From Patescibacteria group bacterium (GTDB lineage Bacteria > Patescibacteriota > Minisyncoccia > 2-02-FULL-40-12 > IGHO2-01-FULL-4-A), in contig JBBTUB010000012.1 in the NCBI GenBank assembly GCA_038064015.1, positions 1 through 51,479 on the forward strand: a DNA stretch of 51,479 nucleotides, written 5' to 3'. This document shows, in pieces, positions 40,659 to 41,972 of the stretch (position 1 is its first letter; each line of letters begins with the position of its first letter). The notes beneath the pieces were generated by a model, which was not told the origin of the DNA, did not search any database, and saw only the letters and a program-made list of their open reading frames with translations. The translations under genes and the position numbers were made by a program.

Positions 40659-40855
40659 TGCGGTGGTATGTGGTAAGCCTGATCAGCACCGCACTCGCAG
40701 CGGGTATTGGGCTTGTGCTGATTATCTTAAATACGACGCCTGATAGCGCAGGAAACGGCATCAAAGCGCTTTTTTTCGTTACCCTGATACTTACCGTCGG
40801 TAGCATCATAGCACTGATCATCAATTCACTGTATGCGCACTTCTATCACCATTAA
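40658..40855 (+). CDS. hypothetical small membrane protein (2 TM)
   Basis: The ATG overlaps the upstream TAA (TAATG). Two hydrophobic helices. Confidence 0.4.
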   Translation: MRWYVVSLISTALAAGIGLVLIILNTTPDSAGNGIKALFFVTLILTVGSIIALIINSLYAHFYHH

Positions 40856-41972
40856 ATTACCTGAAACTGACACTTTGGTGTCATCCCTGGCGCGACGCAC
40901 CGATGCTGACAGCAAGCGGATGGCTCGTTTTTTAGCTATGCCCGATTTGACACGTACGCCGGGCAATCCGCTCCACGACATGGTACATCGGATTCTCGCG
41001 ATCCCGGCCTATGCCGATATGGACGTCATTGAGGTCCCCGAGATTGTCCCTGCCGACATCAGTTTCGACCTCTTTGATTTTCCCAAAGACCATCCCGCCC
41101 GCTCCACGTCCGATACCTATTACGTGGACACGAGCAATATTCTCCGCACCCACACGACCGTCATGTGGTACTACTATCTACAGGATCAAAATGTAAAAAG
41201 CAAAATGCAAAACGGGGAGGCGGTAGGATGCTTTAGTTTTGGCAAAGTGTATCGCAAAGATGAAATCGACCGGCGACATATGAACGTCTTTCATCAGCTT
41301 GATGGGTGGTATCTTGCTCCGAAAAGCAAAACAACAATCGGCCTGGAGGATCTTAAAGAAGTGTTGACCAACATCGCGCACGCGGTGTTCGGCGACGATG
41401 TCGAGATCCGTTTCAATCCCGATACATTTCCGTATACCGATCCGTCCCTTGAGATGGAAGTCTTCGTCAACGGCCGCTGGGTTGAGGTTTTGGGAAGCGG
41501 TGTCGTAAAGGGCAGCGTCCTGGAAAAGTTCGGTGTTGACTCTTCGAATTACACCGGCTGGGCGTTTGGTTTTGGGCTCGAGCGTCTTGCGATCGTAAGC
41601 ATGGACTTACCCGACATTAGGTTGCTGTGGTCCACCGACCCTCGCGTGACCAACCAGCTCAAGTTGGGACATAAATTTGAAGACGTAAGCAAGTATCCGC
41701 AAATTACGCGTGATATTTCGTTTGTCGTACCGAAGACATTCGTGCCGAATCTCTACTTTGATCTCATTCGTGACCTGGGCGGTGATCTTGTGGAAGAAGT
41801 AAAGCTCCTCGATACGTACACGGACCCTAAGAAATTCGGCGATCGGGTAAGCTATACGTATCGGGTAATATATCGTAGTATGGATCGGACCCTGACCAGT
41901 GAAGAAGTTGACGTCATCCAAAAGAAGATTTACGAAGAAACCAAAAAGCAATTTAACGCAGAACTACGTTAA
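40833..41972 (+). CDS. pheS: phenylalanine--tRNA ligase alpha-type catalytic domain fused to a C-terminal FDX-ACB domain
   Basis: Class II motifs ([43 protein letters not shown]). The last ~95 aa, [14 protein letters not shown]...LLDTY...[28 protein letters not shown], resemble the FDX-ACB (B8) domain of PheT. Confidence 0.85.

Follow-up and report, generated by a model that had tools for sequence, protein, structure and literature searches.

The 51,479-nucleotide (nt) stretch of DNA analyzed here, referred to as the window in the following (contig JBBTUB010000012.1 of assembly GCA_038064015.1), originates from a groundwater bacterium of the Patescibacteria (candidate phyla radiation, CPR), the genome of which was assembled to 743,627 bp in 33 contigs with a completeness of 95.3%. 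It encodes a phenylalanyl-tRNA synthetase (PheRS) of 379 amino acids (aa), in which a PheS-type catalytic core is joined to a PheT B8-type anticodon-binding domain in one polypeptide. This gene very probably represents the only housekeeping PheRS gene of the cell, its product working as a single chain without a beta subunit and without B3/B4 editing, and its cassette having taken over the chromosomal locus of pheS-pheT.

Three forms of PheRS are distinguished in reviews, namely the bacterial (alpha-beta)2 enzyme, the archaeal and eukaryotic cytosolic (alpha-beta)2 enzyme, and a monomeric enzyme restricted to organelles (PMC3275996). A large bacterial group possessing the 'organellar' form as its only PheRS breaks this scheme. 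The architecture as such has already been described as the PheRS-M type in AARS Online (PMC11580382); for its housekeeping use in bacteria, no description was found in the full-text literature searched.

Domain architecture, fold and genome-wide searches

The PheRS gene and its two domains were located in the window as follows:

40833..41972, + strand: single-chain PheRS gene, 379 aa, ATG start and TAA stop (open reading frame list and Pfam)
40965..41657, + strand: class II PheS catalytic core, residues 45-275 (PF01409, alignment to Escherichia coli PheS, column conservation)
41688..41969, + strand: FDX-ACB (PheT B8-type) anticodon-binding domain, residues 286-379 (PF03147, TIGR00472 positions 692-798, conservation)

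An earlier note, made from the sequence alone, had described a PheS class II core with motifs 1-3 followed by a C-terminal FDX-ACB domain, and both parts of this description were confirmed by profile searches. The PF01409 (tRNA-synt_2d) match covers residues 45-275 (E 1.3e-57, 195.5 bits), and the PF03147 (FDX-ACB) match extends over the full 94-position model at residues 286-379 (E 4e-23, 82.1 bits compared to a cut-off of 31.1); both are far above chance level. The start codon is backed by orthologs whose alignments begin at residues 1-6.

Active-site residues were assigned by alignment to E. coli PheS and counted per clade, with 21 Patescibacteria orthologs being considered. Motif 1 is represented by H87/R90 within the HPAR motif, motif 2 by R141, and motif 3 by R251, and the phenylalanine pocket is formed by F199-P200-Y201-T202, A244 (corresponding to E. 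coli A294), and G246. The residues H87, R90, R141, H149, F153-H154-Q155, D157, F199, P200, T202, A244, G246, and R251 do not vary among the 21 Patescibacteria orthologs, and the same active-site residues are near-invariant in the clade containing named eukaryotic sequences described below. Conserved residues of the FDX-ACB domain are D294, R313, D327, and the C-terminal R379; D294 and R379 presumably correspond to the anticodon-contacting residues of PheT B8 in the Thermus complex.

Among solved structures, human mitochondrial PheRS (mtPheRS; 3CMQ/5MGU) was found to be the closest (E 1.7e-60, or ~2e-60), bacterial PheS reaching 5e-38 at best and PheT chains matching the protein through their last domain only. 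An AlphaFold2 model calculated from an alignment of 87 sequences achieved a mean predicted local distance difference test (pLDDT) value of 96.4 and a predicted template modelling (pTM) score of 0.91. Its top Foldseek match was the closed human mtPheRS 3CMQ (template modelling (TM) score 0.80/0.75, root-mean-square deviation 3.0 Å over 387 columns, E 4e-35), compared to a TM score of 0.58 for the open, tRNA-bound structure 3TUP. The better fit to 3CMQ indicates that in the model the anticodon-binding domain packs against the catalytic domain, which is the arrangement of the mitochondrial enzyme at rest. The resemblance to monomeric mitochondrial PheRS, which had been proposed from the domain order, was thus borne out by the closest structures as well as by the predicted fold.

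To determine the PheRS gene content of the genome, six-frame profile searches were performed on the whole assembly. No pheT was found in this 95.3% complete genome, the matches to TIGR00472 being only the FDX-ACB domain of the PheRS itself and a 106-aa tRNA_bind open reading frame (ORF). Likewise, neither a B3_4 nor a B5 domain was detected at E<=1 in the whole-genome six-frame search, in agreement with the minimal PheRS lacking both beta subunit and editing domain that had been postulated earlier. The combination named in the earlier note as a refutation, a canonical pheT at another place in the genome and a missing FDX-ACB match, was thus not observed. The PF01409 search of the whole genome also revealed no second PheS-type gene; the other match, of 22.8 bits in a 459-aa frame, is taken to be another class II synthetase. 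The 106-aa ORF was characterized as follows:

contig C32:18513-18833 (L002:1477-1797): free-standing tRNA-binding protein, 106 aa, MetRS C-terminal/Trbp111 type (TIGR00399 136 bits, above cut-off; PF01588 1.9e-28)

It was considered as a remnant of the PheT B2 domain, and this interpretation was rejected: it exceeds the TIGR00399 cut-off, its PheT match is as weak as 5.8e-6, and it is unlinked to the PheRS gene, so that the genome contains no PheT stub. The protein is a candidate for a general tRNA-binding cofactor in a genome with minimal synthetases.

Distribution in the Patescibacteria and the pheST locus

To evaluate the prevalence of the single-chain gene, 40 relatives of the same order were examined. 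In 33 of them an ortholog (58-82% identity) was present and pheT was absent, and six genomes (G005, G008, G010, G020, G029, and G039) carry adjacent canonical pheS-pheT genes and no ortholog; the remaining one (G017) yielded an ortholog fragment only, located at a contig end. At the phylum level, 401 evenly sampled Patescibacteria genomes were searched, with an ortholog threshold of E<=1e-60. Orthologs were detected in 26 genomes, which belong to several families, some of them related to the genome studied here at phylum level only. None of these 26 genomes, most of which are 98-100% complete, contains pheT, and 371 of the other 375 genomes yielded a pheT match, the remaining four being only 68-87% complete. 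One pheT-bearing genome of the sample (G194) is unpublished, and the conclusions are independent of it. Identity among orthologs ranges between 57% and 82% across several Patescibacteria classes. The single-chain PheRS is therefore a widespread trait of Patescibacteria and not a peculiarity of one genome, which refines the interpretation of the earlier note.

The two forms alternate even within genera: pheT and the single-chain gene were found in G295 and G323 of genus g38, in G426 and G400 of genus g318, and, as pheST and single-chain gene, in G008 and G019 of genus g7, respectively. This complementary distribution fits two forms that substitute for each other in an essential function.

Stand-alone ORFs encoding an oligonucleotide-binding fold similar to PheT B2 were also observed in the families f35, f96, and f26. 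They are 124-144 aa long and match TIGR00472 positions ~40-152 with values of up to 5.9e-45. Such an ORF adjoins the single-chain gene in G055 (L033:1501-1926), G108 (L034), and G195 (C10:24509-24805), being directly upstream in f35 and f96, and is located elsewhere in the genome, apart from the single-chain gene, in G046 (L043). G046 had been a candidate for a genome with both PheRS forms and was rejected as such, its 5.9e-45 pheT match being this stand-alone B2 ORF. A stand-alone B2-like ORF is also present in the pheST-bearing genome G384, the PheT of which lacks B2. Many CPR PheT proteins were reported in 2017 to be without the B2 domain (PMC5370408).

The genes flanking the PheRS gene of the window are the following:

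40658..40855, + strand: small membrane ORF, 65 aa, two-helix (homology to upstream ORFs of relatives)
41972..44017, + strand: gyrB, 681 aa (TIGR01059 914.7 bits, cut-off 882.4)

The gene following the PheRS gene was correctly recognized earlier as gyrB rather than pheT, a statement that proved to be understated, since the fused gene occupies the very slot of pheST, relatives having the order pheS-pheT-gyrB. In detail, the order small membrane ORF (~100 aa)-pheS-pheT-gyrB-(secE)-nusG was found in G010, G039, and G029, followed by rplK in G010 and G039; G029 showed no L11 match at the place of rplK and has an extra ORF between pheS and pheT. Both pheS and pheT of G010 are above the curated cut-offs. 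The window and G007 share the order small membrane ORF-single-chain gene-gyrB-secE-nusG-rplK. Within genus g318, the locus reads single chain-gyrB in G400 versus pheS-pheT-gyrB in G426, and adjacency of either cassette to gyrB was also observed in families related to the genome studied here at phylum level only. The 65-aa ORF is 36-39% identical to the upstream ORFs of G007, G010, and G039. In relatives its homolog stands ahead of either cassette, so that it delimits the conserved slot on the left. As judged from gene order, the single-chain gene represents an in-place replacement of pheST at a conserved locus.

The PheRS stop codon and the gyrB start codon overlap in the sequence TAATG, which suggests co-translation of the two genes. 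The guanine-cytosine (GC) content of the PheRS gene (0.51) is similar to that of its neighbours, and databases hold thousands of bacterial homologs from Patescibacteria, both indicating that the gene is not foreign DNA. Matches in the Atlas search were restricted to clusters of its own Patescibacteria ('Minisyncoccota').

An origin of the single-chain gene by deletion inside a local pheS-pheT pair was rejected. Its catalytic domain shares no more than 27-31% identity with PheS of the pheST-bearing relatives and is separated from canonical PheS with full support (100/100) in the tree described below, implying that the fusion is old rather than local and that a pre-existing cassette was swapped in. 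The exchange may have proceeded by recombination between the conserved flanks, or both forms may have coexisted before being lost differentially; the patchy distribution of the cassettes down to the genus level fits either route. Two cassettes of non-homologous length alternating at one locus, even within genera, would constitute a clean case of in-place replacement of an essential gene.

The small membrane ORF of the window is ~35 residues shorter than its ~100-aa homologs, the C-terminal part being missing, and has no Pfam match. Its 3' end runs 23 nt into the PheRS gene, and on the other side it directly adjoins the stop codon of a riboswitch-controlled CbrT-like gene. Downstream of the slot, gyrB varies in size from 681 aa in the window to 766 aa in G010 (L037:5745-8045) and 1148 aa in G007 (L041:2586-6032), the last value suggesting an intein or another large insertion.

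Phylogeny and family assignment

Phylogenetic placement was based on a quick tree of 84 rows and a careful tree of 58 rows, the latter calculated under LG+C20 with posterior mean site frequencies (PMSF) and evaluated by ultrafast bootstrap and the Shimodaira-Hasegawa-like approximate likelihood ratio test (SH-aLRT). Seven canonical PheS sequences served as outgroup (E. coli, five Patescibacteria or Patescibacteria-like genomes, and an Oligoflexia metagenome-assembled genome (MAG)). The two trees agree in that all fused forms constitute one clade (100/100) apart from canonical PheS. Within it, a bacterial single-chain clade (100/98) is sister to, and not nested inside, a clade with named eukaryotic sequences (100/99). 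The bacterial clade comprises several Patescibacteria families, a Saccharibacteria MAG, two metagenome sequences, and a nested protein from the Oligoflexia MAG; its position among Patescibacteria suggests that it was acquired from CPR or that its contig was mis-binned. All four named eukaryotic sequences, from a fern, a choanoflagellate, Vitrella, and a further EukProt transcript, fall into the second clade, the 'eukaryotic' label of which rests on these four, most of its members being without a name. The window protein thus groups with the PheRS-M-type enzymes, in favour of the interpretation of the earlier note, and its position can be narrowed down to a bacterial sister clade outside the eukaryotic one. 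Based on this topology, the protein was filed as a member of a bacterial sister lineage of PheRS-M and not as a mitochondrial ortholog.

Similarity to the organellar enzymes (human FARS2, closed 3CMQ and open 3TUP; yeast MSF1; TIGR00469) is nevertheless extensive. One chain combines a PheS core, devoid of the long coiled coil at its N-terminus, with a C-terminal FDX-ACB domain, and both beta subunit and editing domain are lacking. The structure-based identity amounts to ~32-33%, and sequence identity to the clade with named eukaryotic sequences to 35-45%. In contrast to the organellar enzymes, the window enzyme is bacterial and chromosomal and very probably serves as the housekeeping PheRS; it has 379 aa compared to 405-415 aa in the crystallized human chains, features FPY instead of FPF in the pocket, and has D for E in HQxEG. 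Human mtPheRS aligns to it in two stretches, with ~30 human residues between them remaining unaligned.

With the canonical bacterial (alpha-beta)2 PheRS (E. coli 3PCO, Thermus thermophilus 1PYS; TIGR00468/TIGR00472), the protein shares the catalytic core (33% identity to E. coli PheS, all class II motifs), an FDX-ACB domain homologous to PheT B8, and the chromosomal slot of pheST in relatives. It differs in lacking PheT B1-B7, i.e., the editing domain B3/B4, B5, and the pseudo-catalytic B6/7, as well as the N-terminal coiled coil of the alpha subunit.

Reciprocal monophyly of the two clades under the PheS root is compatible with an origin of the eukaryotic enzymes from bacteria and, to the same degree, with one early transfer in the opposite direction, from a stem eukaryote to bacteria. 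It is conceivable, though doubtful, that single-chain PheRS-M is an old bacterial lineage centred on Patescibacteria, from which mitochondrial and plastid PheRS were acquired before the last eukaryotic common ancestor, instead of having been fused de novo from alphaproteobacterial pheST. In any case, the question of the origin of mitochondrial PheRS gains a bacterial sister group.

Proposed function and alternative explanations

According to the proposed mechanism, the PheS core would activate phenylalanine with ATP at its class II site, the residues of which are intact. The FDX-ACB domain would read the anticodon G34-A35-A36 of the single tRNA-Phe(GAA), as suggested by its conserved residues and by the mitochondrial and Thermus complexes. 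The closed-state model, the 3CMQ/3TUP pair, and analogy with human mtPheRS further suggest that this domain may rest closed on the catalytic domain and swing open upon tRNA binding. With no B3/B4 domain encoded anywhere in the genome, Tyr- or meta-Tyr-tRNA-Phe would not be edited in cis after transfer, and phenylalanine codons would be translated without the Tyr/meta-Tyr proofreading kept by other bacteria. Mitochondrial PheRS has likewise lost editing, relies on the specificity of its pocket, and is sensitive to meta-Tyr, and the editing-defective PheRS of Mycoplasma with reduced genomes provides a precedent for loss of proofreading in small genomes. The enzyme would represent a natural minimal PheRS, with 379 aa versus ~1,100 aa for alpha and beta subunits together.

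Several points weigh against this interpretation. Charging of phenylalanine by the single-chain protein is a prediction from sequence and model. The absence of pheT, deduced from a single assembly of 33 contigs and 95% completeness, is short of strict proof. In the CPR clade, the canonical FPF pocket motif has an invariant Tyr (Y201) at its second Phe position. Furthermore, the protein does not reach the curated cut-off for mitochondrial PheRS (TIGR00469, 250.5 compared to 258.35), a near miss due to the model being built on eukaryotic sequences, and its score for the 'PheS-related mystery ligase SrmL' (NF051887) is almost equal (246.7, cut-off 300, likewise not reached). In addition, two genomes contain both a full pheT and the single-chain gene, namely G443 (OY970181.1, a closed 1.19-Mb chromosome; L049/L051) and G440 (the 3.4-Mb Oligoflexia MAG, JAIBBV01; L045/L052), so that the single-chain enzyme is not necessarily always the sole PheRS. 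Finally, in a scan of positions 39900-42300, no sigma-70-like promoter or terminator was recognized in the interval separating PheRS-gyrB from the membrane gene under B12-riboswitch control (40128-40658). Taken literally, this could place two essential genes on a transcript regulated by cobalamin; an unrecognized promoter for PheRS-gyrB is more likely.

Dependence of a catalytically active PheRS on a helper acting in trans, for example the 106-aa Trbp111/MetRS-C-type protein, or its operation as a homodimer rather than a monomer, is considered improbable. Class II synthetases are usually dimers, a free tRNA_bind protein is encoded in the genome, and the B2-like ORFs of f35, f96, and f26 adjoin the single-chain gene in three genomes. 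On the other hand, the tRNA_bind protein of the window's genome is of the MetRS C-terminal type rather than a PheT stub, as outlined above, and the predicted fold matches the human mtPheRS monomer end to end. As a monomer, human mtPheRS has full activity, and it also aminoacylates bacterial tRNA-Phe; in 3TUP it is complexed with tRNA-Phe, the tRNA being that of T. thermophilus.

A paralog with another task, either an SrmL-like ligase or a regulator, with the true pheS-pheT hidden in the 5% of the genome missing from the assembly, is very improbable. Such a scenario would draw on the SrmL score, on the genomes possessing both forms, and on the incomplete assembly. SrmL also shares domain architecture and length class with the window protein, and both are placed on the bacterial side of the fused-PheRS tree. 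However, the pheST slot itself is taken by the single-chain gene, and pheT is missing from all 26 ortholog-bearing genomes of the 401-genome sample, most of them nearly complete. Moreover, true SrmL members (P0220 and P0260) achieve 376-415 bits on NF051887 and form a separate long branch, and the three SrmL sequences compared show the exchanges H87 to N/S, D94 to Y, F199 to H, S205 to G, G221 to E, and W266 to R, whereas the window protein keeps the PheRS residues. Its intact pocket, together with the long SrmL branch, identifies it as PheRS rather than SrmL.

Recent transfer from a eukaryote, or contamination of the bin with eukaryotic DNA, is barely credible despite the human mitochondrial PheRS being the top PDB match, as it is already contradicted by the 51-kb bacterial contig, the translational coupling to gyrB, the GC content, the conservation of 57-82% across several Patescibacteria classes, and the sister position of the bacterial clade; on the tree topology, recent eukaryote-to-CPR transfer is excluded.

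The interpretation of the gene as the housekeeping PheRS of the cell also bears on annotation and genome quality estimates. The score for bacterial pheS (TIGR00468, 174.2 compared to 237.45) is below the cut-off as well, and no partner PheT is encoded in the genome. Values below the cut-offs of all three NCBIfam models may explain why relatives are named 'hypothetical protein' by NCBI; JGI labels them 'PheRS alpha chain'. Both pheT (TIGR00472) and pheS (TIGR00468) belong to the single-copy markers of the bac120 set used for completeness and phylogeny, and would be scored as missing in single-chain lineages.

Regarding the substrate, one tRNA-Phe(GAA) gene was found in the genome, at contig C15:54584-54658; it is uninterrupted, and its product folds into an ordinary cloverleaf, A73 being present and the CCA end being encoded. 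The single-chain PheRS very likely charges the same tRNA-Phe substrate as the canonical enzyme. Co-variation of tRNA-Phe with the enzyme type was considered and rejected, the acceptor, D, and anticodon arms being essentially identical in pheST-bearing and single-chain-bearing relatives; the substrate therefore needed no change. In four relatives, G010 (L069), G020 (L068), G014 (L070), and G033 (L071), the tRNA-Phe(GAA) gene carries an insertion of ~200-230 nt just 3' of the anticodon, which looks like a group I intron. The lengths reported by aragorn for these interrupted genes range between 271 and 301 nt, and they occur in pheST-bearing and single-chain-bearing genomes alike.

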